DNA from: Psilocybe cubensis
Lineage: Eukaryota
NCBI GenBank assembly: GCA_017499595.2
Contig: CM039005.1
Span: forward strand, 434,001 to 498,000
Reading direction: 5' to 3'
Length of the DNA: 64,000 bases
The position numbers and the translations under genes were made by a program. The stretch's first letter is position 1; each line of letters starts with the position of its first letter. The notes beneath the pieces were generated by a model that was not told the DNA's origin, made no database searches, and was given only the letters and a program-made list of their open reading frames with translations. Below, piece after piece: positions 17,354 through 43,214 of this stretch.

Positions 17354-18013
17354 CTATAGGACGAGACGCGGGGTCGCGGGGAGGTGCAATGCCGTGTCGT
17401 GTCTCCAGCTGTCCAAACTTGACTGGAGGACCTGCTTGCGGCGCTCAGATGCCCGAGGGCCGAACCTGTTTCTTCGGGGTGCGAGGCGGGGCGAGTGGGG
17501 CATCCTCTGCGCGGGTGGTAGGGTGGGTGTTGGTGTGGGAGCAGCAGCAGCTGGAGCTGGAGCTGGAGCAGGGGAACGGGTGGGTGATACACGGCGATGC
17601 TGGTGCTCCGCAAACTCGAGGTTCTTTCTCATGCGCCTGTTCATGAGGAGCTCGGGGGCGGGTCCGGCGCGGATCTTCTCCTTCATCCCGTCCTCAGCGT
17701 TTGGTCGAAGTGACAGGAGGAACTGGAGAGAGTAGACGCGTGGGTGAGGGGTGGTTGTAGCAGGCAATGGGGCTGTAGGGGTAAGATAATGTAAGCCGTT
17801 GAGCGCCTGTGCAAGTGGGGGAATTGACGAACCTAATGTGGAAGTTGGAGACCCTGGTGACGGCGAGCGCTTATGCACTGGCACATACAATCCCTTTGAT
17901 GGGGAAGAGGAAATATATGACGACGCGGGTGAGGATGTTGTGTAAGACCCCGACTCGGATCCTGAAGAGGATGAAGAGGCTGAAGAGCGAGGGATAGAGA
18001 TGGGCGACGACAT
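17354..18013 (-). CDS. Intronless Ser/Pro-rich disordered protein with a YxxxxL-phi (eIF4E-binding-type) motif
   Basis: ORF from MSSPISIP; contains RVYSLQFLLSLR and LYVPVHKR within low-complexity sequence. Confidence 0.7.
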   Translation of the reverse strand: MSSPISIPRSSASSSSSGSESGSYTTSSPASSYISSSPSKGLYVPVHKRSPSPGSPTSTLGSSIPPLAQALNGLHYLTPTAPLPATTTPHPRVYSLQFLLSLRPNAEDGMKEKIRAGPAPELLMNRRMRKNLEFAEHQHRRVSPTRSPAPAPAPAAAAPTPTPTLPPAQRMPHSPRLAPRRNRFGPRASERRKQVLQSSLDSWRHDTALHLPATPRLVL

Positions 18014-20280
18014 TGTCTTCAAGCTCAAAGAGGTTGTTGGCTGTTGGGAGTGCAGACGCGTTTAATCCGGTAGAGGATGGGGGATCGACATGGGACGGAT
18101 ATGGAGATTATATAGCAAACATGACTCGACTTGAGACGGGTGTTGTGTCATTATTGTGGAAGCACGGGTATTGGCCGAAGCACAGCTCATTAGTACACGT
18201 AGGCCTTGACAGGAACGCTAAGCTGATCCACGACATCAGCCCGAACATCGAAGCGCTTGCTGGGATTGCGGAGACGGCTCTAGAAACGTGTGGAAACATA
18301 TTTGTCATCTTCCATCACTCTTGCAAAACCTCGGCTCGGCATGGCGTAAGCATATCCGATACCGTTTTTGCTCCTCCTCGCCTAGGTCACAATCTAATCT
18401 TTCTCCCCGAACCCTTCATTCCTTAGTATTGAACAAACTCATGAGACGGTGCGATATACTTATCGCTCATTCTTCAATTCAAATGTGTATCTTTCAACCA
18501 ACCATGGTCTGGTACCTATCGCAATGAATTTAGATATCTAGGCCCAGTGTAGTCTGTTAGCCCAGACCTTGCAAATCAATACTTCCAACCTTCGACATAG
18601 TGAGAACGTCCTTGTAATATTAATGCTCTTCTAATCCGAAAGCAAGCTATCAATCAGCTGCGTACCCATAGCCTCGAGCATGACAAAGGTGGCATGAGTC
18701 TATAAACGAATTGTCTAGAACGTCCGAGAGCACAGCATTCCCAGAGACACGCAGCCGATGCTTGGCCGTCGCAGCAATGGTCGCCAAAAGCCGAACTTGA
18801 ACCTCACGTGCGTTCTTACTTTGCGACGGCAGCAATGGGAAGGCATGTCGTCAGCCTTGTTTACTGAGCACCGTCGGCGCCTTATTCCGTCGAATGTAAC
18901 GAATTGTAATGACCGTTGGCGTCATTGCTCCTAATATTCAAGGCCATTACACAGTGGGTACTCTACAATGAAAGGACATGAACCAAATGTATGTCAAACT
19001 GCGGGGTTGTGGGCACTCGCTGCGGCGCAGAATAATGTCTCCTGTACGTTTAACTATGGCGTCATCTGTCTAAGGTCTGACGGTTGAACGATCTAATATG
19101 ATACGCCAGAAAGACTAAAGATTGATACTATAGGCCAGGGGTATACTCCAATATTTTGACTTTGAAGGCCACGGCGGTCATTTCACCGCCATTGCCTGTC
19201 ATCATTCTGGAGGTTTACTAGCATTGCAATGTGTCACTCAAGTAACGCTAGGCCATCGTCTGTCCAAAGATATAAACACAATGACGACAGTGGCCACCTA
19301 CCTTGTGAATGATGTACGGATCTCAACATCTCGTTTAGCATATTCGAGCAAACAGTGGCACCATCCGATTTTTTTTTTTTTTTTGGCCGGCCAGGACATT
19401 GAGTAACTTTAGGCCTGCCAAAGCGAAGTGCTGGGACTGATTTGGCCGGAAGGCGTGACGCGACGCGACGCGATCAAAGTCACATGACGTTGGACAAGGT
19501 TTGGGTCTTTTTGCTTTTCAGTCTTGCGCTTTTACCATTGCTTCAAGTTTGGAGTCCTCAACTATAGCTCTTTATACTGAGTTCATCTATTCTGGTCTGG
19601 ATATATTCTCCTCTGTATGACTCTACCTATTATCAATTTTCTGTTCGATCTTCGACGTTGGAAGACGGCCGGCCTTATTGAAATGTGAACTTGAAACGCC
19701 TTCAGTTTCACTGCGGCCGATTGCTCATGTTATCACGCTACGCTTGCTATCGATGATGACAGGTTTTTTCAAAGTTGCTGTGGGTTTAAATGACATATGA
19801 GTTGGGCTACCGACGAATGTTGGCGAGTGACTGCGTCCTCATTCGGAGGTGAGTCGTCTCCCTTGTTCAACTTCATTTTGAAAAGAAGCATATGCTAGGC
19901 TTACTTGAAGGTGCTCTTCGTTTCTGAGTGCGGCTGAACTTTCAACAAATATATCGACCGAGAACCTTCAATGCAGACTGTACCATGGGCAAAGCACTGC
20001 ATGCCAAACAAGCAGACTCTCATAAAGTAATCTTTTCCTGAGAATGCAGCTTCCAAATCCAATGGAATACGATGTCGGATGTGAATGTGCTGCTGCTGAG
20101 TTTGGTGGAAAAGGGCAAGCGCTATCTCGGAATCATCTGTGGTACTGTTTTTGCCATTGGATTCATATACTCATTTCGAATCAAGCAGGGATGCTCAAAA
20201 AATAACAGGATATTATCGATGCACTGTTCATAATTTTGCCCTTTCTATCGGAATCGATGCGATGTACAGACTTCAGACGA

Positions 20281-22000
20281 CCATGGACATGAACAACAAG
20301 GGATGAGGTGCAAGGGTGTTTGGACCAAGTTTGAACCGTGCCCGAACACACTCCGCGGTCCGGAGATAAACCTCACGTGAATCGATCCTATAAAACGAGG
20401 ACTCCTTTCTTTCGAGGCCGCCCACTTTTTTTCCTTCCCTCTCTCATCATCTCCTCCTCCATCCTCCTCTCCCTTCCTTCCCACGAACTCTTCTTCTGTC
20501 GGGTTATCCTTTCCCTCTTGTGGGATCGCAGTTTTCATGTCGACTTGACGTCGCAACTGGCTTGGTGCCACTCAGGATGGTCTATCGATGTACTGTGGCA
20601 TGACGCGCTCTCCCTGGTTGATGCTGGTCGGATTTCTCACTGGCTTGCTCTTGTGATTAGGTGTTATCTATTCTGCTGTGGTGAGCCGTGTTTCTCGATT
20701 CTCTAACCTTCGTGCCATCTGATCCATGCCACCAGTTTCTTGATCTGCCTGAGTACCCTGAAAGCCTTACTTGGCCCCTCTTCGCTCATATATGCGCCTT
20801 GACTCTGTCTGAAGTACTATCTTCCCTGATATTCTGCTGCTGGTACTACTCTGACTCTCGACTTGGACATCTTGGGCTACCGGCGCGATGAGTTTTGATG
20901 TGCTTACGACTTGATAGCTTGATTTTATCTCTGGGATTCCCACATTATCCCCATATTTCTCAAGGGTATCTGGACTATGTCGATATCATCCTCTATCTGC
21001 ACTGGATATATGCGCTTTTTCTTGGTTGGAGGATGGACATCTTCGCGTTTCCTTCACGTCTTGTCGATCACAATTCTATCGAGTGGCACTGGTCTATTTA
21101 TAGGTCGACGCGATCGAAAGTGTCACGTGCTATTTGCTGGCTGGCTGTTGGCTTTTCTGGGCTTGACGGTCAATCTGGCTTGCAGTTGTCGTTTTCAATT
21201 GCTGGGCGAGTCTGTGTTTGCGCTACACTCTCTTGCCTGTTTCTCAAATCTGTTACTATCCTTTTGATATATCTGATCGTACCTTGCTATGCTGCTGGAA
21301 CTTCTTTGTATGCTCGCTGGTTCCGACTGTCTGCCACCATGTTGACTGATTTGCTGTCTTATGAACTCTGATGTTATGTCCGGACTTGTAGAATCTGCTT
21401 GTCTCTACTCTACGAGGCACATTTCCTCAGCTATGCTTTGTTCCTCTTGTAACCCTGGTTTTAAATTCTTGGCTTTAGTACAATCTGGCTTTGCCCGCTA
21501 TGTTCAAGCGCACAACTTTCTGGGCTTGCAGAACATTTCCCATGCTTTGATCTTGGGTGTTAATCAGTGGAACTCTTGAAAAGGACTCAATAATTGTGGC
21601 TCTACGTGTTGCTCTGGGGCTTGGGTTATTATTTTTTACGTCAACTTCTACCTCTTATTGGTTACTTTTATCGCTCATTCATGATGGTACTGGTTGCAAC
21701 ACACGTATTTTGGCTATTTCTTTGGGATGGCTCAACTATCTGTCTCTGACTGGAACTCTGCTTTGTTACTTTCTGGAAACTTCGCTGGTATATCCGAATG
21801 TCATTTTGTATCACCCTTTTGGACAACATCCAACGGCAGCCGGGGCGTCGGCCCCTGTGAGTTCTATTCCCGCTTTATTCTTTGGATCGACTATTAACAT
21901 TTCTTCACATTATTATGTTTACTCTGCAGTCGATTATCTTTGAACTTCTTTGGGCACCACCTTCCCTGGGCGCCAGAAGAACGCCAGAATAATTTCATGC
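20281..22000 (+). other. T-skewed ORF-less element, copy A (candidate spliced lncRNA or decayed gene)
   Basis: TATAAAA at 20389; intron-like 20681-20735 (GTGAGC..CTAAC..CAG); hairpin GGGGCgtcgGCCCC at 21842-21855 followed by T-GTGAGT; 23 T vs 5 A in 21121-21180; terminal motifs shared with the 34215-37400 element. Confidence 0.5.
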
Positions 22001-22636
22001 GCTTGCACTAAGGATCGTTTTTGCACTTCTAAATTGATGGGGGTGGAATAGCTGACGTTTTTTTATTGAATCTTTAGATCCAACTTTGATCTGCAAACCT
22101 CGCACATCTCAAAACTGTTCTGTATCTCCAACCAACCCGTGAGTTCAAAGACACATCTTGTATAACGAATGGTAAGTGGAAGCACTGCGTGGGGCAAGTC
22201 AACAAATGAGGACTCGTCATCTGAGCTATCAACATTTTAATCCCGTCTTATCTTTTGAGGTAGGTATTGCTGGCTGTGATCTTCTCGTGAGTTGTGAGGC
22301 GTTTCTCAACAACATCTTGGGGTATGCAATCTGTCAATTTAGCCTGATGAATCTGTCCACCGTCACGGCACGACACATTACAAAGTTCAACTTTTCTGGG
22401 GGTGCTACGACCTGAGGGTACTGTTCAATGTATTTGGAGCCAACTTTTTTGAAACGGCAAGGCAAATGCCCTGATCTGTCTGTCTTCGACGGCAAAAATA
22501 CCCTTCTTCAGCAAATTACCCGCTTTCGATGGAAGTTTGAAATGAGAAGTTACAGCGATAGCTCAAACGATCGTTCAACGAAAAGCAACGAAGTAAATGA
22601 GGTACAGTTTTATAAGTCGAATATTCATTTGATCCA

Positions 22637-23304
22637 TCACCAGTCATTGAAGTCCTTCCACACCTCATCGACTTTAACCTCCATCCCTTCCAGGTACATT
22701 CCTGAACTCATAGCCAGTCACAAATTTGCTAGCGTCATGAGAATTCCGTTCCTCGTATACTTTTCGATTACATCTTGAAAAGGATGACATATGTCAAAAA
22801 TGCCCGCCATCTGCAGCCCAAGAATCCATTCGCATCCCAGAAGCTCGATATTTTTGAGGCCTTTATTCATGTTGACGACAGTGCATATTTGCTCCTGGAG
22901 CGCTTCTTCGTCCAAGACAATAAAAGCTCCTTCCCAAAATCCAGGAACTTTTGGTTTAATAATGTTGGTGTCGTACCACGCAGCAACCTCCTCAAAGCTC
23001 ATTCCAAGGAATGGCGATTGGAACGGCTGAACCGGTTGAGTCAACAAATGAGGGATTTCAGATACGTTTTCCGAGGTCATTATCACTATCCATTTAGCAA
23101 TAATAAAATCGGATCTTTGAAAAACTTCGGGTGTACCGAGCTTATGGTCCTCAGTTATGCTAAGAAAGCAGTCTAATTCCTGAGTTAGATGCACTCGATA
23201 ATTAGCGCACGCACTTGACAGAAGTAAAATATCAAAACGATACGAACCGAAGCTGGAATTTCTGCGGTGCAAAACACAGCACAACGATTCGGTGGACGGA
23301 TCAT
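22637..23304 (-). pseudogene. Tandem-array paralog 1 with a premature in-frame TGA
   Basis: Exon 1 MIRPPNRCAVFCTAEIPAS; exon 2 ELDCFL...TLANL*; stop at 22718-22720 is followed by the intact family C-terminus LAMSSGMYLEGMEVKVDEVWKDFNDW*. Confidence 0.7.
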
Positions 23305-23895
23305 CGAGTACCAAGTGGAAATATTTCACGCTCGAGGCTGGCAAGTAGGATAAGGTGAACGTATGAAATGTAGTATAACTCCATCGACTCGCCAGCGAGA
23401 AGGTTTTGTTGTGATTTACGTAGTGTGCAGCATGGTCACCCTGAACGGCATTCAACAATCATAATTCACAACGCCAGAAGGTGCACACTGTCCACAATCA
23501 TATTTTCGGAGGACTTCGATGCCAGAGGTGCACACTGTCGATGCGATATTATGTATGTCTGCCAAATATTAAGCGGTTTAATCACCGGCAAAGTAGAAGC
23601 GACCCCCAAAATAACTTAAATTCATAGGAGAAATTGGAGGCTTCGGTGTAGATAACCATTACTCTTTCCGGGTGACGTGCCGACAACGAAGAAATAGTGC
23701 TGGGGGTCAGGCTATTGACACCTATCCTTACATCCAAAGTATGGGGGAGAGGATTCCCCGATGCGTATTTGTGAATGTGGCAAGGCTGCTCAGCCTTCAC
23801 GATATGACACGAATTGACGGATTGAGGGTCACTTCGCATTCAGATCTGAACAAAACCTTTGAAAATACGTAGTGTAAAATGTCATATCACTGCCG

Positions 23896-24550
23896 TCACC
23901 AGCTCCCAAAGTCCTTCCACACTTCATCTATTTTGACTTCCATTCCTTCCAGATATCGTCCTGCACTCATAGCTAGCTTCAAATTCTCTAGAGTCATGAT
24001 GACCCCCTTCCTGATGTACCTTTGGATTGTCTCCTCAAACGCATGGTCTAAATCGAGAATGCTGGCCATCTGCAGTGCAAGAATCCATTCACAACCCAAA
24101 AGCTCGATATTCTCCAGGCCTTTCTTCATATGGACGACAGTGCATAGTTGCTCCTGGAGCGCTTCTTCATCCATCACGACAAACGCTCCAAAATAGAACC
24201 CTGGAACGTTTGGTTGGATAATGTTGGTGTCGTACCACGCAGCGACCTCCTCAATACTTTTCCCAATTAAAGGCGATCGGAAAGGCTGGACTGGTTGGGT
24301 CAACAAGTGAGGTATTTCAGATACGTCTTCTGAGGTCATTATCACCATCCAATCGGAGATGATGAAGTCAGAGCTTTGAAAAGATTCCCGGTTACCCAGT
24401 TTGTGTTCCTCAGTAATCATCAGAAGCGTGTCTAGCTCCTGTAGGGGGTCAGGTTCAATGCGTAAGCATAGGTATGCAGTAGTGGATGGAACATACTGAG
24501 GCTGGGATGTCTGCAGTACAGAAGACGGCACAGCGAGATGTTTGGCCCAT
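23896..24550 (-). CDS. Tandem-array paralog 2, ~200-aa acidic protein of unknown function (possibly remote DUF6924-like)
   Basis: Exon 1 MGQTSRCAVFCTADIPAS, GT-AG intron, exon 2 ELDTLLMITEE...WKDFGSW*. Confidence 0.85.
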
Positions 24551-24679
24551 TGACGGCTATTTGGGATAGTTGCTGTTGGTCAACGGTGTATGTTGAGGTT
24601 AAGTACAATGTTGTGATTCAAATAATGATCTGATCATGAGTCCAGATCTCGTGTGCTAATGGCAGACGCTGGACTATTA

Positions 24680-25331
24680 TGTCATGCAGAAAACAACACA
24701 ACGACTCAGTCGGGAGCTCATTGATCCCCAATAAACATGTTTGATCATCAATATTGGGTGGTAAGATAGGCTGAGGGTACTATGGGGGTAATGGACCTCA
24801 GGCTCCATCGAGAAGGTTTCGTTGTGCGTTACCTAGTGTGCAGCGTGCACACCTCGGACGGCATCATCCACAATCATATATTACAAGGACTTCGACGCCA
24901 GAAGGTGCACACTGTGGATGTGATATTATGTATGTCTGTCAAATACCAAGCGATGTACCCACCGGCGATGTAGAACCGACCTCTAAAATAACATGAAGTC
25001 TTAGGAGAAGCTGGCTGCTGGAGGCTTTAGTGAGGGATGTAGGCAAACATTACCCCTTCCGTGTAACGTGCCGACAATGAAGACATAGTGCTGAGATTCA
25101 GGATATTGATACCTATCCTTACGTCCAAAGTATTCGGGAGAGGATTTGCTGAAGACTATTTGTAAATGCGGCAAGGCTCAGCTCAGCCTTTACGACATGA
25201 CACGAGTTGACGGATTGAGGGCCACTTCGGACTTGAATCAGAAAGTGTACACAGTAAACCATCGAAATTTGATGCAAATAATTCATGAAAAAAAAAATTC
25301 AACAATGTGTAGTGTAAAACGTCATATTGCT
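24680..25331 (-). repeat. Relic array unit: exon-1 remnant plus duplicated upstream/spacer region
   Basis: 24680-25331 aligns by eye with 23265-23895 (e.g. CACAATCATAT..GGACTTCGA.GCCAGA.GGTGCACACTGT; GACGGATTGAGG..CACTTCG); TGCAGAAAACAACACAACGACTC resembles exon 1 of copy 1; exon 2 is absent. Confidence 0.7.
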
Positions 25332-25337
25332 GCGGTC

Positions 25338-26425
25338 TATGGCTGTCCGTTTGCACATTTAATACCAATCTATAAACTTTTTGTCCCATACATAGAAGTC
25401 TCAATTCTACACAATTTCATATACACACTCTAATGTCCCAGATATAGAGAGATGGTTTCCGAACATATAAATCCAGTATCCATACATTCATAGGTTGCAC
25501 CCTCAGATACAACTTTGAATACCATACATATAGTTTTGGTGCCCACATATACAAATTACAATCCCTTACATAGAGAAAACACTCCCTTTTATACATATCT
25601 TGTTGTCTTACTTATGTCTGAAGGTTCCCCGTATGATTATTCTTACCTTTCTTCATCCCGAAGATATACAGTCATTTTTCGGCATTCTGTCTATGCCGTG
25701 CATGCCTAGGCATCGTGAGAATCAGCAAATCTCGGCAAATGTGGACACAAATTACAGTTCATTGCCTGTATGCCTATCAACACATGCTGATTGAACATTA
25801 AAGAGATGCACATTTATCCAATTAATCAGTAAATATATTTCTGTGTAGGCTGATTACAGAAGTAGCTTGTCTTCATAGTTTGAGACGAGTGCTTTGACCA
25901 GCCCAGTTGCCGTGCTAAGGCTTAAAAGGCCTAAGTTGAGGTTGCAGACAGAAAATTGCATTGGAGTAGTCTATATTCAGTCTTATGTGACTTTAATGTA
26001 CGAGTGTTTATGCTGATGATTAATTTTATAATCTTGTAATGACTTTCCTACTTTCTTCACAAGTAGCAATCCACTGCAAGCGGAACGAAAATCGAGTTCC
26101 CACGCCTCTACGGCACGGACGGCACGAATAATATTCATCTGGTCAACTCTATATCTTTGGACAAAAGTTGAGGTACATGCGGAGAGGGTCACAGACTATG
26201 GTACTGAGTTTTTATGTATGGATAGCATACCCTTATGTGTGCAGCTCCCATTCAAACTGAAGGGCATGCAAATACAATGACCGGGATAATTTTTTCTATG
26301 CTCGGAAATTATCTCTCTATAACCGGGACACCAAGGTATGTAGTTGGGTTCAAGAAAAATTGTGATTTATATGTATGGGGAAAGAATTTATACTTTGGTA
26401 TTAAATGTGCAAACGGACAGCCATA
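25338..26425. mobile_element. Non-autonomous DNA transposon (1088 bp) with long TIRs and GCGGTC target duplication
   Basis: 31-bp perfect TIR TATGGCTGTCCGTTTGCACATTTAATACCAA, extending imperfectly to ~140 bp; GCGGTC at 25332-25337 and 26426-26431; removing it restores a site matching the empty site next to copy 2 (TCATATCACTGCCGTCACCA). Confidence 0.88.
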
Positions 26426-26429
26426 GCGG

Positions 26430-27095
26430 TCACCAGTTGTCGAAGTCCTTCCACTCCTCGTTGATTTTGACTTCCATCCCTTCCAAATACCGTCCTGAAT
26501 TCATGGCTAGTTCCAAATTTTCTAACGTCATGAGGATGTTGTTCCTCATGTACTTTTCGATCACTGCATCTTCGAACGGATGATTCAAATTGAGAATGCT
26601 GGCCATATGCAACGCAAGGATCCACTCGCATCCGAGAAGCTCGATGTTTTGGAGGCCTTTCTTCATGTTGACGACAGCACATATTTGCTGCTGGAGGGCA
26701 TCTTCATCCATTACAATAAACGCTCCAGAATAGAACCCGGGAACTTTGGGTTGGATAATATTGGCATCGTACCATGCAGCAATCTCCTCAATGCTCTTTC
26801 CAAGGAATGGCGATCGGAAAGGCTGAATCGGTTGAGTTAAGGAATGAGGAATTTCAGATACGTCTTCCGAGGTCATTATTACCATCCAATTAGAGATGTC
26901 AAAACCGCCGCTTTGAAAGACTTGCGGGGTACCGAACTTGTATTCCTCGGTAATATTTAGAAAAATGTCTAGCTCCTGTGTGCGTTCACGTTTGTTGTGT
27001 AAGTAAGATACATGTACCAGTAGATGCCACTGACTCACTGAGGTTGGAATGTCTACGGTGCAGAAGATGGGGCAACGACGTGTTGGGTGACCCAT
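26430..27095 (-). CDS. Tandem-array paralog 3
   Basis: Exon 1 MGHPTRRCPIFCTVDIPTS, intron, ELDIFLNITEEYK...WKDFDNW*. Confidence 0.85.
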   Translation of the reverse strand: MGHPTRRCPIFCTVDIPTSVSQWHLLVHVSYLHNKRERTQELDIFLNITEEYKFGTPQVFQSGGFDISNWMVIMTSEDVSEIPHSLTQPIQPFRSPFLGKSIEEIAAWYDANIIQPKVPGFYSGAFIVMDEDALQQQICAVVNMKKGLQNIELLGCEWILALHMASILNLNHPFEDAVIEKYMRNNILMTLENLELAMNSGRYLEGMEVKINEEWKDFDNW

Positions 27096-27467
27096 TGACA
27101 GCGAGGTGGGATGGCTGGTTAGCAGTGTATGTCAAGATTAAGTATGATCTTTGTGTATGGATAATTATTTGATCGAAACGCCACATTTCGAATGATTCTG
27201 CATTCGACTAACAAATCTTACCGCCGATGCGAGGAAGCGATATTCAGAAATTACGACGACACCACGGCTAATACCATCCAAAATATAGACGCTTTGGTAA
27301 TTCACTGAGATGAGCAGTCTGTGCCCAGTACTTCTATGGCTAGTTCTGTTGGTTTGAGATTTCATGGTTTGAGAAACGTTTACAATGATGGTTTATTTAT
27401 TCATTCGAACAACAACCAATTCCAGCTAATACATAGTAATGAGGTTTTGAACGTTGTAATAGCTCCA

Positions 27468-28129
27468 TCACCATTTGCTGAAGTCTTTCCACTCCTCGTT
27501 TATTTTGACCTCCATCCCTTCCAGGTACCGTCCTGAACTCATGGCCAGCTTCAAATTGTCTAACGTCATGAGGATTCCATTCCTCGTGTACTTTTCGATG
27601 ACTGACTCGAACGCATGATCCAGGTTGACAATGCTCGCCATTTTTAACGCAAGGATCCATTCGCATCCCAAAATGTCAATATCGTTAGGGCCATTCTTCA
27701 TATTGACGACAGCACATATTTGCTGCTGGAGGGCATCTTCATCCATCACAATAAACGCTCCAGGATAGAATCCGGGAACGTTTGGTTGGATAATATTGGC
27801 ATCGTACCATGCAGCAATCTCCTCGATACTCTTTCCAAGGAATGGCGATAGGAAAGGCTGAACCGGTTGAGTCAACGAACGAGGAATTTCAGATACGTCT
27901 TCCGAGGTCATTATCACCATCCAATTGGAGATGTCAAAACCGCTGCCTTGAAAGATTTGCGGGGTACCGAACTTGTATTCCTCGGTAATATTTAAAAAAA
28001 TGTCTAGTTCCTGTGTGCGTTCATGTTTGCTGCGTAAGAAGATACATGTACCAGTAGATGCCACTGACTCACTGAGGTTGGAATATCTGCAGTGCAGAAG
28101 ATGGGGCAGCGAGGCGTTGGGTGACCCAT
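27468..28129 (-). CDS. Tandem-array paralog 4
   Basis: Exon 1 MGHPTPRCPIFCTADIPTS, intron, ELDIFLNITEEYK...WKDFSKW*; very similar to copy 3 including the upstream region. Confidence 0.85.
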
Positions 28130-28632
28130 TGACGGCGAGGTGGGATGACTGGTTAGTAGTATATGTCAAGATTAAGTATGATCTTTACTTTGTGTATAGA
28201 TAATTATTTGATCGAAAAGCCACGTACCGAATGATTCTGTGTTTGACCAACACGCCCCAGTAAGCGATATTCAAAAATGACACGAACACCACGGCTACAA
28301 TTTGATTCAGAAGAGTGTCGACTCCGCTTTTGTAATTAACTGATGGAGAATAAAAGACTTATCAAATTATCCGCAGAAATCCCTGCATATGGCGTGTTGA
28401 CAATGAGGAAATGATCCCTAGTCTTACGTTCAAGACTTGGGGGAAAGTATTCACCAGTATCCATTTCAGTTTGTGGATACGATGAGTTTGTGGATATGAC
28501 GAGTTTGCTCAATACTGACAATACACACAAGTCAATCATAAATTGTCAGAGACCCGTGGCACTCCCCACAGTCTGAATCAGGAAAAACTGCGTCTGCGAA
28601 CACCACAAAGTCCTGTTGTCTGACCTGGAATA

Positions 28633-29268
28633 CTACCAATATCTGAAATCCTTCCACTCCTCATCGACCGTGACCTCCATACCATCTAGGTACATACCCC
28701 CATTCATAGCGAGCCTGAGATTTGCCTTCGTCATCAGTATATCAAGCCTCATATACTTTTCGATCACTTCTTCAAATGCGTGATCCAAATCAAGGATGAC
28801 CGCCATATCCAGTCCAAGAATAAACTCGCAGCGTAAGATGTCGATGTTATCCGGCCCTTTCTTCATGTTCACAACGGTGCATATTTGTTCTCCAAGCGCT
28901 TCTTCGTCAAGGACTATGAATGATCCCTTAAAGAACCCAGCGGTATTCGGCAATATGATGTTTGCGTGGTACCAAGTGGCGATGTCTTGGGGTGTTTTTC
29001 CAACAAACGGCGTATCAAAAGGTTGAACGGGTCGGGTCAAAAGTTGAGGAATTTCCAAAATATTCTCCGAGGTCATTAGAACCATCCTCTCGGTGACATC
29101 AGAGTTGGACTCCAGGTACTCCTGGCTAACATTTAGCAGAGTGTCTAAAATCTGTGGATAGTGAAAGTAAATCAACATCGACTAAAATTGACTATAAAAC
29201 TGGCTCTTTACAGGAAGTGGAATTTCTGTCGTACAGAAGACTGGGCAGCGATACGGCGGGCGTGTCAT
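28633..29268 (-). CDS. Tandem-array paralog 5 (most divergent)
   Basis: Exon 1 MTRPPYRCPVFCTTEIPLP, intron, ILDTLLNVSQEY...WKDFRYW*; short deletion in the N-terminal variable region. Confidence 0.85.
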
Positions 29269-29601
29269 TGAAGAAAACGGGCTGGGGACGAGTCGCTATT
29301 AAATGTCATTTTTGTGAGCGGATAGATCTCAACTGACCGATCAAGGAATATACTAATTTTCTGGATCGAAGCCTTACATTACTGTGTGCTTGATTCTTTT
29401 CTTCTTTTTCCGTACTCCGTTTACGCGCTCAGGGTATTACTTTATTGTACATGCTGTCAGCTCCGAGTCACCGTCACGGTGGTATACATGGTACTGCCAG
29501 TTTGTAATTTCACGTTTAGAAAAAGACTTAGAGAGACAATTCATTCAATCATGCATCCGGCTCTACCAAAAAACAATTTGAACATCCTAATATTAATTCT
29601 A

Positions 29602-30256
29602 TCACCAGTTGCTGAAGTCCTTCCATACCTCATCTATTTTGACTTCCATTCCTTCCAGATATCGTCCTGCGCTCATGGCTAGCTCCAAATTTTCTAGAGT
29701 CATGATGACCCCCTTCCTGATGTACTTTTGGATTGTATCCTCGAACGCGTGGTTTAAATCGAGAATGCTGGCCATCTGTAGCGCAAGAATCCATTCACAA
29801 CCCAACAGCTCGATATTATTGAGGCCTTTCTTCATATGGACGACGGTGCATATTTGCTCCTGAAGCGCTTCTTCATCCATTACAATAAATGCTCCAGAAT
29901 AGAACCCGGGAACCTTGGGTTGGATTATGTTGGTGTCGTACCACGCAGCAACCTCCTCGATGCTTTTCCCGAGGAATGGAGATCGGAAAGGTTGGACTGG
30001 TTGGGTCAACACATGAGGTATTTCAGATACGTTCTCAGAGGTCATGATCACCATCCAATCGGAGATGATGAAGTCGGAGCTTTGAAAAGATTCTCGGTTA
30101 CCCAGTTTGTGCTCCTCACTAATGATCAGCAGAGTGTCTAGCTCCTGTATGGGGTCAGGTCCAATGCGTAAGTATAGGTATGCAGTAGTGGATGGAACTT
30201 ACTGAGGCTGGGATGTCTGCAGTACAGAAGACAGCACAGCGAGGTGGGCGACCCAT
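29602..30256 (-). CDS. Tandem-array paralog 6
   Basis: Exon 1 MGRPPRCAVFCTADIPAS, intron, ELDTLLIISEEHK...WKDFSNW*; closest to copy 2. Confidence 0.85.
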
Positions 30257-30816
30257 TGACGGCTAGTTGGGAAGGTTGGTTAGTAGTTCCATGATGTATG
30301 CTGATGTTAAGTACAATGTTTATAATGATCGGATCAAAGAAGCCAGAACTCGAACTATTCTGGACTTGGAAATTGGAATAGAATGACCACCAGGACTGCT
30401 GTCAAGAGTGTGGGTGCTTTGATAATGAACAGATTGACATCCAGCACTCAGTATCTGTGTATTCAAGCTCCTAATTTATAAACAAAAATCGCATAACCCG
30501 GCAGAAATCTAGAAAATCTTTTATCCAGAAGGTGTAAATCGCTGTTATATCTCTGCCGAGTGCAGGCGCATCACATACACTTGTGGACAGTGTACTTACA
30601 AGCGCGTTATTCAGTTGTAACGGACTTCCTGAGTTATGAGCCCACAGTAGTTTATCCTCAGACTACCCATTGAGTCGACAAAATATGGTTACCACCTGCC
30701 TCCTGGGTAGACATACAAGTATATATTATATTACTAGACTGAAATCAGTGTATCTTCACCCCTTCGCTGGCCGAAGGATATCCATATACCAACTCAACTG
30801 AAGAGTCACGATAAAA

Positions 30817-32482
30817 ATGGCCGGGACAATCAAAATTTCCCTTACTACCTTCATTTTCTTATTCTATCTACTTCTATCCACTGGTGGTGCCCCTTTACCT
30901 CCAAACGAAGCCGAAGAAAAATTACGCCCTCTGCCCGGGAGATATGACCAACATTACGACTCGGAAACTGGTATAGTCACAGCTTATTATGGCGATGACA
31001 AGCTTCCAGAGCATATGGCTCATGTACAATTCAATCAAGCCCTTCATCCAGAGAATCGAAAACCTATGCCGGTTGCAGACAGTGAAACCAATAGGTTAAA
31101 TCGGGCAAATGCATTGCGCGGTATACCTCATGGAGGGCCATTTCGAGAGTATGCACCATCGCTGGGTGACCGCGTCCGCGATGAAAAGCAACCTGCCATG
31201 TTTGACAACGAACATCATTCAACTACAACGACGGTTCAATATGTTCCAGATCGCGAATCCAGTAAGTACACTGATAACACTGGTAACTTATTGTGCGATG
31301 AGTTGGTACTAATTTGGTTGTAGCAGCCGAAGGCGGGCTTCTGAATGGAGCAAAAAGGCTGATGATCCAACATAATGCACTGGGGACGGTTCGAGCAAAC
31401 CCGGGCTGGCTCCCACTTGATCCCAAGCAGCGCATTGGCCATGAAGCGCCTGCACGCCTTAATTCACAAACTCAGAAACCTAAGGATGAAGAAAAGGCTT
31501 CCAACACCAAGTCAAAGAAGAAAAAAGTCGTTCTGAAAAAGTTAAGAATTCCCAAAAGGTACATACCATACGTTATCGGCCTGTTCTGCCTTCTGGCAAG
31601 GTGCTACGCTATCGCGATGGTGTTTCATCCAAGCCCGCTAGTTCCCGGGCCAAAAAGGCGAGGTCAAGGAATACCCGAAAGAAGTCATATCTCCACCCAG
31701 GTCGCGTCGCAGAAAAGGATCATGTTTGGAAGCCAGAAAACTTTCAACCTTCAAAGGATGACCATGCTTCGCACTTTGGAGCTCCTGTACCAATATCAAA
31801 CTCAGACACTCGCCAACCACCACGTCCACAAGATAGAGCGCATTACGAACGTTTGCTGGCAGAGAAGGCTCAGAAATTCAACAAAGACCATCCTCCACCA
31901 GCGGCACATTCTCTTCATAATCTCGTAGAATCTCACAGTCATGATAAGCCGATTTCGAAGCCTGGAGAAACTGCAGAAGAGCGGAAACAAAAGTTCGTGG
32001 AGGACCTCGACAAGAAGATTAAGGCCGACAGATTAAAGTCAAAGATCGACAAATTCAACGCGGCACATCCTCCAGCAAAGATACATCAAACTGCAGAGGC
32101 GCCTGCAAGGTTGGAGAGCCATGGCTTTAAGCAGCAGCCTAGTAAGCCGGTTGGCCGCCGACGTGGACGGAGCCGACAGCGTGCGAAGTCAAACTCCAGG
32201 TCTTCGACTGGTTCAAAAAACAAGTCGACCGGACCCCGCCGCGCTTCATCATTGTCGGTACAGCCTGAGAGTGGCAAAGTTCATGGCAAGGGGCAGCACA
32301 CATCCACAGCTACCCCGGCTAATCAAAAGGCAAAGGCAGATCAACATGATCGTTCCAGTCATCACAATGTTAACAAATCAAAGCCTTCCTCTTCGAAAGT
32401 ACAGTCGTCGAGAAGCCGGTCGAAATCTCCAGGAGGTCATCGTGGATCAGGGAAGGGGAAGAAGAAAGGTGGAAGAAAGTAA
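30817..32482 (+). CDS. Secreted NucA/NucB-like (beta-beta-alpha-metal) deoxyribonuclease with a long basic tail; apparent frameshift at the A6 run 31521-31526
   Basis: Signal peptide MAGTIKISLTTFIFLFYLLLSTGG|AP. Motifs LPEHMAHV, NRANALRGIP, RDEKQPAM and TVQYVPDRES|TAEGGLL parallel Bacillus NucB (YPETGAHI, R..SLKGIP, RDEWPMAM, SVRYV...DNRGAG, recalled from memory). Intron 31262-31323. EAPARL recurs on both sides of the frame change. Confidence 0.65.
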
Positions 32483-33360
32483 TTTACACACTATCCACGT
32501 CTGTCATTACTTGGAAATGTGAATTTTGGATTATTATCCTTGATGAACTTTGCTCAACGATTCCCGAAGTGGGCACACCTTGCACATTCGATGAGTGACC
32601 AGCGATATTTGCCTGAATACGTACATTCAAGAATTGAAGATTAATTCGACATCGTGCGCCCTAAACAATCTGAGAAACTGTTGTGTCTCAAGGTCTGGCT
32701 TTAACGATGAGATATCAATAACCCCAATCATTGAATGTACATGTTCATGGCGACAGATCATTGGCGTGTTTCCTTGTATCGACTCGATGAAGCAGAAGCA
32801 GAATACGAGAAAGAAAACTTGAGTGATCCATCTTTAACTTTGAAGTGAGCCTATGCCATCCATATACGTGGGAGAATCGTAGAATATCGAGAGAGAGAGT
32901 AAAGGAAAGCCTCAAAATGAACGCCAGAGACGCGGTGTAGGTAAAACGACGAGGCAGGAAACAGCGTGAATCACAACCCTGAGAAGAAAACTGCCATATG
33001 CGGAACTTGCCGAACCTATACCCACGCTCGGACCCTCGGTGGAAGAAAGGGATTGTGTAAAAGTGCAACGTCCCTCGTTGCAAATAATATGCTGCTTGTA
33101 CGTTCATTGCTAGGAACGTAATATATATACATAAAATAATGAATAGACGGAAGATGATTTGGATTGCTAAATCCAGTTCATTGAACGAGTAGCCAATGCT
33201 ACTGTGTTCCAAGTTCCAACTTCAACAAGGAATATAACACATCGCTTCTCAACGGTATCAGAAGGTTTGATCACAGTTCAAATAGAATAACATTGTTTAT
33301 ATATTACATTATGTGGAGGATAAATGCACAATAACTAGGGTATTTGATAACTTAAGTCAT

Positions 33361-33815
33361 TCAGGTATTCTTGTTGATCTCCTGTTGAGCTTGACCTTTA
33401 TCGTGTCGAGCATTTCCTGTGATGAAAAAAAGACGATGAATAAACATTTGAAAAAGGGCACTAAAAAGCACATTTACCTGCAGCTTGCTGAGACTTGTCA
33501 CCAGTGATGGCACCGACGATTGAGTCTTTCTTGCCACTGATCCGGTCGGTGGTCCCTTCGGCGTATCCTTTGGCCTGGGCAGCTTTGTACTCGGCCTCGC
33601 CAGCGGCGTGCTCTTCTTTTCCGGACTGCTGCCACGATGTGGCCCCGGTTACGTTGCCGATAGCTTCGACTACGTTTCCTTTGGTGGAGTGGAATTGCCC
33701 TGTGGTCTTGCTATACATGGCAATGTGGATTAAGCAAAATTTCAAAAAAGTTGAATCGGTACAGTACGTACTTGGGCTCTCCAGAAACAGTGTTGTTGAA
33801 AGCTGATGATGCCAT
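33361..33815 (-). CDS. CsbD-like small stress protein (Hmp1 'mismatched base pair and cruciform DNA recognition protein' family), 3 exons
   Basis: [88 protein letters not shown]. Confidence 0.85.
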
Positions 33816-34214
33816 GTTTTTAAAGTAGGTTTGATAGGTGCGATGCGTTTAAAAGGCGGGAATTTGATGAGTACATTGGCATTCTGTTGCCCTCCTTTAT
33901 ACGCATTTCGAGGGCGATTTCGGATCCAAACTACCTTAATTCCGTTCATTCTGCAATTACGATTGTGTAGGCGAGGTCGACAAAAGCCCCATTGGTGACA
34001 TCATACGTCTGAGTCGTGAACAAGCGCCGATGATGTTCACAGACGTCACAGTCAGCTCGCTAACGATGACATCATAGCTTATTTGAATTATGCCCAAGTC
34101 ATTTCTGGTTCTTCATCGCTCCTTTTCGCAAAGCTTGCGACTAAATTCCCACAGCTGCTGCGGTCTCAGGCGGTCTTGGGTTTATGAGGAAAGAGGTAGC
34201 GTCTTAAATAACAG

Positions 34215-37200
34215 TTAATGAAATTACTCCGTTGTAGCTCTTCAGCGAACAAACAATTGTGACTACAATCTCGATAATCAACCACATAGTTTAAACTAAA
34301 ATGTCCAAGTCTGCTACAAAATTTAATCCAGACCTACGAGGACCCGACCTATAAAAGAAAAGGTATAGGGACGTCAGTACGCTGTGAAAGACAGGATAAA
34401 GCAAATATACTCACAGGGGCAGCCGCCCCATCTAACGTTTAAACTCTCTCAACAAATCATGCCCAATCTAACATTTTGCGGATCCTAACACAAATAATCA
34501 GCAAAATAAAGCTTGAAAAAAATACTTACCTTAAATAAGAGATTGCAAAGTCTGGATGAAAATGGTTAGCATTATACAGTGCCAGTCATGATACATAAAA
34601 GAAAGGTTCAATATGAAAACATTAAAAGAGAACAAATATAGCAGCAGAGAATTCAGAGGTCCCGCAAGCATCAGAAAGCATTGAGAATACGACAGACAGA
34701 GAAATCAAGCTCTAAGACGACCAGATAGACAGATAGAAATCCTGTGGGAGCCAAGACGTGACGAGACAGAAACACAGATGCCCAGAGCCAGAAATATAGA
34801 TACAACACAGTACAATCCAGACAAGAAGACCTAACTTGAGAAGACACGCAAGGGAACCGAGCACAAGCCATGAAGGACAGAGCAACAGTAAGCAATAACC
34901 AGTCAACCAATCCGAACGATCTGAAGTTAAAATGAATCAATATCCTGAGGGATAGCTAGCAGTATATAGACTCACCACGCCCGCCCGCCCACCCCAGCAG
35001 CGCAATCGTTGAGACGTTTCATACCAACAACAAGAACGTTTAATCGTAACCAAGACAACCCCAGACAGAGTAGATATCCGACAGGACACAGCAAACTGAA
35101 CGGTGAGGCATATAATAAGAGTGAGCAATAGATGACAGGTATTCAACAAGACAGACCATCAGCCAGTAGACACCAAAGAGAACGAGGACACGCATGCCTA
35201 CAGAAAACCGGACTCCGAGAATAGCGAAGCAGATAAATCGTGCACGAGACAGCAACAAGAAGCAACCAAGTATGAGGAGTAGAGATATCGCGTTATGCAA
35301 AGACACAAGACCACAATTGAGAGGAGAGAGCAAAAGTAACAGCACCATAGAGCCTCCATATCGATAACGCCAAGCTATAGAAAAACAGGCAAAACTAGAA
35401 GAAGCGCGAACCAACAAACCCTAGACAGATTATATATCCAACAAAACACAAAAATCACGAAAGAGAGGCACAGAACAAGAGTGAACCATAGATGACAAGC
35501 ATTCAATTACACAGACCATCAACTGGCAATAGACACGAAAGAGAACAAGATGCACAAGACAGAATTAGATTCCAAGAATAGCGCAACCAGAGTATAGCCA
35601 ACGTAGCTAATGAGAGACAGTATTGCGAGTTAACCAAGTTCGAACAGCGCAAGCAGACCATAGCCAAAGTAACCAATGAAAGACAGCATGACGAGTTAAC
35701 CAAGTTCAATGATCAGAAACACCACATTAGAGGAAGAAGCGAAGACCAGGATAACAGTAGCAGCACCATAGATCCATGCCAACAAAGCTAAGCCAGAGGA
35801 TACATTAAAGACTCGAACAACAGACATGGTAACAACCTCAAGACATGACGAGGCGAAATCAAGCGAGAACCAACAGAGCACAACAAAGTAGAAGCCAGAA
35901 ACGCATAAAGGCAATATATAACAGACATCCATAAGAGACCAGAGCAACAGACCATTGACAGCGAGCAGTCAACCACAATGCCACAATGTAGAGTCCACCA
36001 CCGAAAGAGAAAAAAGCGAACACCCCCAAGTCCACAATCCAGTTGGTAAGCAAGAAAAGTCAAGAAGACCCGAGCAACAGCCATTGTAGCAACCAATGAG
36101 CAAGACCTAGAACAGAATCAGAACTCTGTGCAACGTTGGCAGTTTTGAAACTTACCACGACCTCCCACCCACCCCAACAGTGAATAAAAAACGCAACCAA
36201 ACAGACAGGGTGCCATAACAATAGTTCCACATACAGAAGAAGCGCGGGATAAAATCCAAGAATCGTGCAGTCAAAGACACAGTCACGCAAAAATTGACCC
36301 AGGGTAGCAAAGAGAAACAGACCGACAGCAGAAACAAGCAGGAAGAATTATCACAGAGTCAAATCTACACAGGAATTCATGGAAGACAACAACCTAGAAA
36401 AGCGATAGCATTGTGCGCTGACATACCCTCAAGCCAGGTAAAGGTGGACAAAAGCGAGGATTAGGAACCTTGGGCAGAGGATAAGCAGACAAAATAGACG
36501 AGCCACAGATAAAGACGAGCAGTCACAAAACACAAGCCCACCCACAAGGCCAAGTCCGGCAAACAGAGCCCACGTGATAGACATTGACCCATCAAACTAT
36601 AAATAGACAAGCGCCAAGTAAAGGGCACGGATTGTTGGAAAGCACGAAAACACACACCCCGAGAGCATAAGGAATCCCCAACTTCAGGACAAGGCGTATC
36701 ACAAGTAGATATGTTCTACCAAAAGACCAGCAGAGATTCTTTCATGAAAAGCGTCATCCGGACTTCAGACAATAGACGCAGACAAAACACTGTAGACATC
36801 CGCAACGGGTCAATCGATGATGGAAGGGCACGGAAGATGAAAAGTACCAATCATAGACCCAGTAATGTAGTAGCGGTGCAGAAAGGGTTAGCCAGAATGC
36901 GAGTCGGAAGAAAAATCACACAAGATATAACAGAGAGGGCAAGACCAGACCATAGTACTTCATTGCCGAGACAGAACCTGCGGTGGCATAGTGAGGAAAA
37001 TAGACAAAATCATCCAGGGCGAGTGCTTTAAACTTACCATAGAAAAGAACCCATAATGGCGGGCATAGACGCAACGCGGAAGCTTCGTGGTAGAATGCCA
37101 CACTGCATACTGCAGCAGACGAGCCGAAACCAAGACCGAAAGCAAGGCTAGAAGTAGACTACTCACGGTTCCACAAGTGGGAGGCATAGTGTTAGGTGCA

Positions 37201-37400
37201 TAAAGAATGAGAGATCGACCAGTCTGAGGAAGAGATGGTGAATGTTGGGGAAGAGAAAGGTGAAGGGGGGGAAAGAAAGGGGCCGGCAATTTATAGATAA
37301 TCGTGGGCACCAAAGTTCAACTCCGCCAATCCTGGGAAATTGATGGGCCACACAAAAATAAACCACCTCATTGTCGTCCCGTTTTGTCAAGTCCAGGGTA
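34215..37400 (-). other. T-skewed ORF-less element, copy B (candidate multi-intron lncRNA or decayed gene)
   Basis: TATAAA at 37295-37290; canonical intron-like segments 37110-37166, 36978-37037, 36107-36155, 34921-34975, 34485-34529 and 34349-34414; hairpin at 34416-34429; 24 A vs 4 T on + strand in 35161-35220; no ORF >125 aa. Confidence 0.55.
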
Positions 37401-38662
37401 CCGGGTACCAGCCACAGCCAAGGTTTTGCTCAAAGGATGGCTGTATAAAGCCTTTGTAACAAGATGAATAGCCAGAAAGATAGATACTCGCTTGCAAGGT
37501 GACACGGTGAGCCACAAGCCTACTACTATGCCAGCTAATCCAAGGTGTTTGATAGTAACTTTGCGTCGTTGAAAGCCAGGTCAACAACTCTAGTCCGCAG
37601 CATAAAAGCGTCTATGAATTACATTTTCAGGAAGCCAAGTCATGTCGACAGATGATTTATTAGTTGGGTAAGTCAAGGCGTGCACTGTTGTGTCATTCAT
37701 TGAAAGACAATCTTCACATCTTAAAATGTTACGACGTGCATATCTAGAAATCTAACCTGTCCATTTCCTCTGTCATGCTCAATCAGACAGAATATCGACT
37801 CGGAGACAAAGTTGTAACAGCGTTCCCGGTCATAGCATGAAACAGACAGACGGATGGCGAGAACAGGATGCTAGCTAGTAGCCGATCGTCAAACTCTGGA
37901 CGACGGAACGATTAGATTCGTATGTTCTGTGCCAGAACTCTCTTAAAAATGTGGAGATGATGACTTTGGTATGTCTTCCTTAACTTTTATAAAGGAAACT
38001 AGAATGCTGGTGCTTGTCTAACATAACTTCTGGACTTGACAACTAGGGCTAATCGAGACGTCAAATACAAGTAATGCTATCACTGGCATTGCCTATAATG
38101 TTTTGACATGCACACTTAGGTCACAACTCTATGCACTATGCATGATGCCAGTTTCCGTTGAGAATGCGGACATCTACGCTTGTGTTGAATTGTCAAGTTA
38201 TCCGTCATTTTTTACACTGCAGTGCATACCTTTCAATGAGTGAGCTAGCAAAATGAAATCTTTCAAGCTGGATAAAACTAACATCCCCTAAGTAAAGTAA
38301 CTAGGTAAACGTAAACCCATAGGAGGGTCGCGTCTACAAGATCTTATCAATAACCCATCAAGGGAATAATTTCAGCTGTGGAGTCTGTCGCTCTTCTAAG
38401 TTCTGGCTATGTTTCGGCCTACCCATGCATGGCAAATGGTATTAATATGGCTTATGCCTTGCCGTGGCAGTCCCGGAACAAAAATATATCAGTTGATGTA
38501 CGCACTAAAATTCTCGACTCTATTCTTGTACTGCATTAACAGAGCGTCCACAGGGCCTTCGCATCTTTAACGGAAAATCATGTCATAGCTATGTGACTTC
38601 GAATCGAAGCCCATTTCACATAATTAACTCAAGGCGCCATCTAAGGGGGGCTCTTCATCGCA

Positions 38663-41951: not shown

Positions 41952-43214
41952 ATGTCGGCGACGACTACAGAAACGCAGACTTCTCCTCCCCAGACCCCCC
42001 AAACGCCAGAGTTCACTGTGCTCAACCGCGTTGCTTCCATTCCAATGATTTCTTCATCCCTGGTCACCATTAATGAAGCATTATCGACCAATACCTACAC
42101 CCGCTCTTCGTATATTCATGCTAAAGAGCTCTCTACCTCTGCCTACAAGCTTACCGAACCTCTCCAAGTCAAATTGGCTCCCCTTATTGTCCGTGCTGAC
42201 ACCTACGCCAACAAGGCTGTCGACGCGGTCGAGTCTCGCTACCCTTATCCATTCAAGGCCCAGCCAGAGGAGGTTGCCACCTACGTGCGCGAACGCAAAG
42301 AGAGTACCACCAACTATGTCAGCGAGCGTGTCAACCATGTCAACAAGGCGATTGATGAAAAGGTCAAGACCCCCGCCTACAATGTTGTTCACGGCATCGA
42401 TAGGGTATGATTTGACTTCTCCTTTTCCGTTCCATTCATCATGCTTATCGTGCATTCACACAGCGATTTGCCCCAATCGTCGACTACTTCGAGGTTACCG
42501 TATCGCGACTCAACAATTCCGAAGCCGGCCCATCTACACCTCCTGATGCTCAATACCAATACCAACGTGCTCTCGCCCTTTCCAAAACTCTCGGCGAGAA
42601 CATCTACGACTATTCCAACGAGCAACTGAAACACTTCCAGGCCCAATCTGTTATCGCGTATGTTTATTCTTCTTTTCTCTTTGATCTAGGTTCCTAACAT
42701 AATTCAATTCAATAGTCAGAAGGCCTCGGAGACTGCCGCCTCTATCTCTACCGTCGCTTCGTCATCTCTTGCATCTGCCCAAAACCGCATCCACACCCTC
42801 TCCGATACCATGCTCGCTGAGCTCCAGAAACTCCAGGCTTCAACAAACTCCCTCACAACTTCTCTCCAGGCCAGTCTCCAAAATTCCGCTTCGCAACTCC
42901 AGTCCCAGCTCCCCAGTCAGATTCAACAGTCATATGCCGATCTCTCCGCCGCATTAACCTCTACTGTCAACGAGCTCACGACTATTATTACCACGAAGGA
43001 CCTTCCCCTCCAAGAAAAGGTAGCCCGTGTTGGTAAAGAAGTCCAGGAACGTGTGCACCCTCTTCTCGAAACCGTGAAAAAGGGTGTTTCGGAGGTCCTT
43101 GCCCGCTCCAAGGAGGCGAGAGTCGTTGCTGAACCTGCTGCAGAGCCAAAGGAGGCTGAAGCTGAGGTCAAAGAGGCGAACGGAAACGGCCATGCACCAG
43201 TCGCCTCTGAGTGA
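41952..43214 (+). CDS. Lipid-droplet perilipin-like protein (Cap20/Mpl1/Pln1 family), 3 exons
   Basis: VLNRVASIPMISSSL...PLIVRADTYANKAVDAVESRYPYPF, followed by amphipathic Ser/Gln-rich helices. Confidence 0.8.

Follow-up and report, generated by a model that had tools for sequence, protein, structure and literature searches.

We analyzed a window of 64,000 nucleotides (nt) of Psilocybe cubensis DNA (G000:C8:434001-498000) that contains two T-rich elements, copy A (positions 20281-22000, plus strand) and copy B (37400-34215, minus strand). The interval separating A from B contains, besides a CsbD-like gene and a small inverted-repeat element, a gene family without a Pfam match in seven diverged copies; a tyrosinase gene lies beyond B. 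No gene overlaps A or B on either strand. A third copy, C, lies outside the window on the minus strand of the same contig (G000:C8:430763-413816), 24-40 kb from A, and is 82% identical to A over 1521 aligned columns. We consider it an even call that A, B, and C form a small, local family of probably non-coding, selected, spliced RNA polymerase II (Pol II) genes.

Three homologous copies on one contig

The original prediction described A and B as two elements with conserved ends and with interiors that do not align by eye. Compared over their whole length, A and B share three strong collinear blocks: a TATA-CT tract (E = 7.7e-4), an interior block (E = 2.9e-4; A 21084-21165, B 36616-36533), and a palindrome with a splice donor (E = 2.9e-4). 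The interiors thus do align at one block, and the number of copies is three. The first 800 nt of A and B are collinear, with the interior block (CTATTTATAG..TCACGTG) standing 703 nt after the TATA box in A and 687 nt after it in B. Taken alone, the best single block is borderline, its score of 33 equaling the maximum of 100 shuffles. The collinear chain as a whole amounts to 35.2 excess bits, a value reached by none of 300 global and none of 300 local dinucleotide shuffles (maxima 17.4 and 18.2), so the predicted alignment of motifs holds against shuffled sequence. The homology between A and B is real.

Searches of the 46.6-Mb genome (21 contigs) with seven patterns gave three copies in all, within 58 kb of one contig. 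A promoter pattern allowing three mismatches listed B and C genome-wide, not A. Four further weak pattern matches under mismatches lacked a 3' block under our 3' model, and the two of them that were also read proved unrelated. Scanning 264 kb around the locus with models of both ends revealed nothing further, and the 3' model had no match in 212 kb elsewhere, these scans covering less than 1% of the genome. The own-genome DNA search was word-based, so that more diverged copies could escape it; it returned no second match for B genome-wide, and B therefore has no long antisense target. In the rest of the 264 kb, B had no exact 15-nt match and A had two, both isolated. A metagenome scan with the 3' motif gave a single match, a bacterial rpsB-tsf intergenic hairpin that we attribute to chance, and a viral scan gave 0 matches. 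Four other T-rich stretches nearby are intergenic or resemble untranslated regions (UTRs) and are unrelated to A, B, or C.

The original prediction also raised the possibility of an element family. Homology between A and C extends more than 300 nt into the 3' flank and therefore points to segmental duplication, not transposition. No terminal repeat occurs among those listed for A or B, and the copies are not dispersed, so a family of mobile elements, including non-autonomous ones, is not supported. What splits copy C is a KDZ (Kyakuja-Dileera-Zisupton) transposon of 15.3 kb, inserted at G000:C8:414820-430069 with an 8-bp target duplication, that encodes KDZ (E = 8e-36) and CxC2 (E = 4e-16) domains and sits about 55 nt from the interior block. 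C lacks the last acceptor, and A lacks the signals of the first intron. The three copies would stand at different stages: B looks intact, A eroded, and C broken.

Each element appears to have its own Pol II promoter outside coding genes. The promoter of A (20281-20424, plus strand) comprises a CACGTG box, TATAAA at 20389-20394, a CT box at 20404-20413, and a CA initiator at 20423-20424; that of B (37261-37400, minus strand) has TATAAA at 37295-37290, a CT box at 37280-37271, and a CA initiator at 37262-37261. As originally predicted, CCTTTCTTTC lies 15 nt after the start of TATAAA in both (A 20389, B 37295), and A 20388-20459 is 93% identical to copy C. From the start of the TATA box to the CA initiator the three copies measure 35, 34, and 35 nt; in A and in C a single further A stands at +26. 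PMC12230235 places the beginning of 83% of canonical TATA boxes in Coprinopsis between 38 and 31 nt ahead of the start site, with a mode of 34. The predicted TATA-initiator spacing of A, B, and C is that of agarics, and the conserved CT box therefore belongs to the predicted promoter. The predicted starts are 20424 (A) and 37261 (B), so that the first ~140 nt of each element would be promoter, not RNA, and the predicted transcription units run over 20424-22000 (U-rich, with two recognizable introns) and 34215-37261. A far-upstream motif of the original prediction (CC.TGGAC.TGA..) fared less well: it can be recognized in A and B but is weak, with a global z of 2.9 and 26/500 in the local test, and has gaps in C.

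Splice signals and reading frames

The sense strand of B carries six GTRAGT donors, against 1.06 in shuffles, and the antisense strand none. Six introns are predicted, separating seven exons of 95, 72, 822, 1131, 391, 70, and 134 nt; spliced, these add up to 2715 nt with 14.4% A and 40.9% U. A strict rule accepts four introns, a count reached by 0 of 1000 shuffles, and a looser branch rule accepts five, with five or more found in 4 of 844 background 3-kb strand-windows. All six had been called canonical. Five are, with branch points: intron 2 (36978-37037, 60 nt), intron 3 (36107-36155, 49 nt), intron 4 (34921-34975, 55 nt), intron 5 (34485-34529, 45 nt, or 98 nt with the AG 17 nt upstream of the last donor as acceptor), and the last intron (34349-34414, 66 nt, branch TACTGAC), all on the minus strand. 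The exception is intron 1 (37110-37166, minus strand, 57 nt), which has a perfect donor, absent in A and C, and no A in the usual branch window. Intron 3 is an old duplicate of intron 4. G-rich exon ends precede these two introns (36170-36184 and 34981-34997, minus strand); the one before intron 4 contains four GGG runs and could form a G-quadruplex.

Copy A retains two predicted introns on the plus strand. Its early intron (20681-20735; GTGAGC..CTAAC..CCACCAG) shares the 3' end ATGCCACC(GC)AG with B intron 2 (37037-36978), as foreseen, and with C. Its last intron spans 21857-21929 (73 nt).

Three-base periodicity was absent from both elements (z -0.1 each), compared with 6.7 and 9.9 for exons of the membrane protein PMA1 and 3.8 and 8.3 for two neighboring genes. 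The longest spliced ATG frame of B did not exceed shuffles under any of three donor rules (9/30, 4/30, and 27/30), and every spliced frame of B contains 25-28 stops. The exon at 34484-34415 has stops in all three frames, a claim of the original prediction that we reproduced. Splice-aware frames in A reach 157-163 codons (4/60 and 3/60 shuffles), against 215-508 codons in controls, which lay above all 20 shuffles. A 332-codon splice path through A (1/60 shuffles) was rejected as implausible: it needs any GT as a donor, and the GTNNG candidates include none of its 7 introns. Gaps are mostly not multiples of three, both between A and C (24 of 29) and between the duplicates inside B (22 of 29). 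Alleles from other runs point the same way: in run X2, a contig matching A at 99% carries 4 inserted nt at 21306, within the longest open reading frame (ORF) of A; X2 also has a 7-nt insertion at B 35545; and both X2 and X4 show a 195-nt go-back (duplication) joint at 34820/34626. Indels at 20426, 20741, and 20744 and joints at 20460/20581, 21116/21270, and 21914/21988 match copy C and were left out of this count. Pfam searches of 12 frames gave nothing better than E = 0.13. No protein relative was found by phmmer with a 159-residue frame, two word-based protein searches, or one Atlas query, each of them weak for distant proteins. B thus appears to have no protein-coding capacity.

Two coding alternatives bear directly on these frames. 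The first holds that B encodes a 77-residue peptide, read from the first ATG across introns 1 and 2, with the remainder a long, intron-containing 3' UTR. Once all six introns are taken out, a frame of 77 codons does open at the first ATG (transcript nt 61). This frame depends on intron 1, which has no branch point, and shrinks to 12 codons unspliced; moreover, the ATG and the intron 1 donor are absent in A and C, and the 41-residue part in exon 3 had no match in protein searches. We regard such a peptide as very unlikely. The second, in which recoding or RNA editing of the stops would save a protein gene, would make sense of B stretches between stops that read like membrane helices. It must contend with 25-28 stops per spliced frame of B, with frame-breaking indels between copies and strains, and with the virtually absent editing that PMC8893723 reports for Pleurotus; we find it hardly credible.

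Conserved blocks, transcription, and interpretation

The interior block lies at 21084-21165 in A (plus strand; GTCTATTTATAG-N19-TCACGTG) and 36533-36616 in B (minus strand), and is common to all three copies. From its sequence it can be read as a 3' splice site, as an antisense TATA box with an E-box, or as a protein-binding site; it also fits the MADS-box consensus CTA(A/T)4TAG. A candidate conserved fold at this block (window z -3.3 and -2.1) was not upheld on refolding, and A, B, and C fold differently there.

The 3' end follows the original prediction. GGGGC-N4-GCCCC, one T, and the donor GTGAGT occupy A 21842-21862 and B 34429-34409. Within the 3' block of A (21838-21862, plus strand), an AG is followed by 17 nt that hold the palindrome GGGGC-GTCG-GCCCC (21842-21855), with the donor at 21857; in the block of B (34409-34433, minus strand), the 17 nt hold GGGGC-GGCT-GCCCC (34429-34416), with the donor at 34414. 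The distance from this AG to the donor is exactly 17 nt in each of the three copies, making a 17-nt micro-exon possible. TAATTTCAT likewise occurs in both elements (A 21990, B 34226). The tail ACATT..GATTATC does align, if more weakly than the three main blocks (global 0/500 with hand-picked bounds; local 29/500), although it falls partly in the last intron of A and in the last exon of B. The palindrome may be an RNA stem, a dyad DNA or protein-binding site, or simply codons for G-A-x-A-P. Among Rfam models run over 19500-38500, the sole match (E = 0.54) lay outside both elements.

To weigh constraint, we used the blocks defined from A and B alone, which makes the A/C comparison an independent test. 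Between A and C, four short blocks have 88.3% identity and the remaining sequence 77.6%, a contrast equaled in 637 of 20000 random placements (p 0.038 in a site-level Fisher test). This lends modest support to constraint on the short motifs. The body between them appears unconstrained, and it is unstructured, with a mean fold z of +0.47 in B (50 windows) and +0.11 in A (25 windows). The proposal that selection acts on promoter, splice signals, and short motifs rather than on a protein gains from the block identities, from the missing codon signal in B, and from the frame-breaking indels.

The sense strand is strongly skewed, as had been noted: A and T make up 16.7% and 37.3% of copy A and 14.8% and 40.7% of copy B, against 28.2% and 26.8% in the window. 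The T>A skew of B (0.44) is the largest of 844 sampled strand-windows, the next unrelated one being 0.30. B is longer than A largely because of internal duplications at 35048-35997 (minus strand): a 66-nt unit present twice (35576-35707, 83% identity), a stretch of ~180 nt (35409-35591 versus 35048-35233, 73%), and one of ~240 nt (35756-35997 versus 35335-35574, 62%). One further duplication takes in an intron. Conserved sites in these duplicates are 48% T and 10% A.

A run search with B listed 5 runs under one species label and no RNA run among them. Transcription was assessed from contigs of runs X1 and X5, which were RNA-like by guess. These contigs skip the GT-AG intron of the next gene (38239/38293) and therefore contain spliced RNA. 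Their coverage takes in position 20741 (depth 5.7) and the stretch 21729-21906 (depth 6.3) of A, as well as part of the B bin 36618-37251. The contigs give no strand or ends, and bins without contig cover in X1 and X5 were not used as evidence. This coverage weakly suggests that A and B are transcribed; splicing is predicted from the intron signals and draws no support from the contigs. A separate spliced transcript occupies 37747-38498 on the plus strand in X1 and X5 (joints 37944/38046, 38070/38120, and 38239/38293); it heads away from the B promoter toward the tyrosinase gene and has no long frame in that part.

Several observations weigh against a family of selected, non-coding, spliced genes. 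No splice joint falls inside A or B among the joints listed, and the X5 contig at 21729-21906 (depth 6.3) crosses the last donor of A unspliced; it may be read-through from convergent genes. Selection on the hairpin had been predicted specifically, and here the case is poor: all 5 G-C pairs of the stem are invariant in three sequences and the loop varies, with no covariation, and the folding energy is ordinary (z -0.4 and -0.9). The element is 82% identical between A and C, the 3' flank 86%. Base A accounts for 21-22% of letters at variable sites versus 10-16% at conserved sites, which fits a slow erosion of the T>A skew, the site pairs being unpolarised. The periodicity test can miss weakly biased genes, since an MFS control exon scored only z 1.6. 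Finally, there is a hint of codons. An open frame in A (21551-21943, plus strand; no ATG and no protein match) arrives at the last donor in phase 0, reading G-A-S-A-P. Over 21434-21857 the A/C codon differences in this frame are 23 synonymous and 42 non-synonymous, the other two frames giving 12/55 and 10/57 (scan p 4/300, from a permutation that ignores neighboring-base effects in a stretch holding four stops and five indels). A/C mismatches are also slightly 3-periodic (20/1000; 13-19/500 under three gap settings). The synonymous excess is possibly the trace of a coding ancestor.

These last points lead to a rival that we take seriously and still judge unlikely: that A, B, and C are what decay has left of genes for a lineage-specific hydrophobic (membrane) protein, ordinary pseudogenes whose blocks (promoter, splice sites, and a G-A-x-A-P motif that ends at a phase-0 intron) would be the slowest-changing remnants and whose transcription, if any, would be residual. 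Besides the synonymous excess in the G-A-S-A-P frame, differences in the palindrome among the three copies are confined to one codon of that frame, the invariant 17-nt spacing from AG to donor suggests a micro-exon, and the 66-nt repeat of B is in frame. Micro-exons are common in agaric coding genes (PMC12230235). The dinucleotides are CT/TG-rich and CC-poor, unlike those of the four U-rich flanking or UTR-like stretches nearby, and decay is visible in the missing intron 1 signals of A and in the transposon within C. Yet the searches named above, weak as each is for distant proteins, found no intact relative, and B combines six perfect donors with no periodicity. Some stops are common to the duplicates of B, and one (21548) to A and C, and are hence old. 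Over all A/C blocks the best-frame synonymous fraction is 0.32, compared with 0.33 after permutation. Conserved sites in the B duplicates, at 48% T and 10% A, also differ from PMA1 membrane exons, which have 27-33% T.

Alternatively, the RNA could be incidental, with function residing in the DNA or in the act of transcription and the blocks being promoter and factor sites: the sense TATA box, an antisense CACGTG-N-CTATAAATAG, and the dyad GGGGC-N4-GCCCC. Transcription of B would then tune the CsbD-like gene ~300 nt downstream or the divergent transcript toward the tyrosinase gene. Read antisense, the interior block is indeed CTATAAATAG with a CACGTG box upstream, the same pairing as in the sense promoter of A; the palindrome has dyad symmetry and no covariation; and the Cryptococcus neoformans RNA RZE1 is described as acting mainly in cis (PMC4654512). 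We nonetheless find this account improbable. A and C keep the same blocks beside other neighbors, the palindrome is fused to a splice donor and to an intronic GYTTTAT word, and no CT box follows the antisense TATA.

We return to a family of genes for long non-coding RNA (lncRNA), a reading that draws on the homology, copy number, promoter geometry, intron signals of B, lack of a usable frame, and block conservation described above, all taken from sequence. B would be transcribed and spliced as drawn, with A eroded and C dead. Local segmental duplication would have made the paralogous genes A, B, and C. For the way they work, we propose a mechanism in which we place about half the confidence given to the family itself. 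The shared TATA promoter would set the timing of the RNA, yielding from B a capped, spliced RNA of ~2.7 kb. Its long U-rich body would be unstructured, and exact sequence and length would be unimportant, because tandem duplication lengthens the body and indels are freely tolerated. The blocks that are short and invariant would be handles for proteins, and the GC palindrome, one base before the last donor, would act on that splice. The RNA might then serve as a landing platform or decoy for proteins that bind U-rich RNA. That blocks are kept beside different neighbors favors protein handles over a neighbor-specific cis effect. The ancestor may have been a gene for a hydrophobic protein. A bolder version is a long shot: a selected family of adenine-poor, deliberately unstructured fungal lncRNAs that also occurs in related agarics, in which the hairpin gates the last splice and a conserved internal antisense promoter gives each gene a counter-transcript of its own.

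Paralogues that are intact, eroded, and broken by a transposon would show which few bases survive the duplication of a non-coding gene. Candidate targets for mutation are the 10 stem bases, one donor, and the interior block. Should the coding trace prove genuine, this fungal locus would preserve the turning of a protein gene into one for RNA; should B prove silent, the cluster would be one of ordinary pseudogenes.

Neighboring features and known systems

On the minus strand at 22140-30400 lie about seven diverged tandem copies of a gene of ~160-240 amino acids, without a Pfam match; its only Atlas matches, at 0.87, are unnamed clusters of fungi. At this family, X2 and X4 show go-back and skip joints, which suggest strain differences in copy number. 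RNA-like contigs of X1 and X5 cover a truncated family copy just downstream of A (22043-22882), a stretch that is also duplicated beside C. At 25337-26426 we noted an element resembling a miniature inverted-repeat transposable element, with 46-nt terminal inverted repeats and very high depth in X2 and X4; it is absent from one X2 contig (joint 25330/26429). A Ser/Pro-rich ORF at 17354-18061 (minus strand; no Pfam match) contains YSLQFLL, which fits the eIF4E-binding consensus YxxxxL-hydrophobic. A perilipin gene (41952-42410) is 100% identical to a Psilocybe cubensis protein and 85% to one of Galerina. An inverted duplication, ~72% alike, pairs 48116-48940 with 58327-59163, ~10 kb apart. Farther along the contig, G000:C8:555000-598000 holds a tandem array of at least 5 copies of an 8476-bp unit (98.7-99.9% identity), intron-rich on both strands; the part scanned had no Rfam match, so it is probably not ribosomal DNA, and it is either a real array or an assembly artefact.

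A literature search returned no characterized lncRNA gene family in mushroom-forming fungi and no account of this locus; supplementary lncRNA catalogues, which lay outside that search, may list relatives. Of the systems compared, RZE1 (PMC4654512) is likewise basidiomycete, intergenic, apparently non-coding, and located beside developmental genes. It is described with demonstrated expression and a known target, whereas A, B, and C are three paralogues with an extremely U-rich body. NORAD (PMC4947167), a repeat-built decoy for RNA-binding proteins, shares with B a long, low-complexity body enlarged by internal duplication; the duplicates of B, in contrast, are few and irregular, and B has fewer of the Pumilio-type word UGUA than expected (z -1.75). 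The natural antisense and fast-turnover non-coding transcripts of Agaricomycetes in PMC8893723 have similarly low sequence conservation and come from the same fungal class, but A and B overlap no coding gene and have their own predicted promoter and introns. The lncRNAs that are protein-gene fossils (PMC5577775) also combine a gene-like promoter and splice sites with broken frames and a faint coding trace; these are defined by a syntenic coding orthologue in an outgroup, and the cases described there are mammalian. By analogy with these systems, A, B, and C resemble intergenic lncRNAs and may belong with those that are fossils of coding genes.

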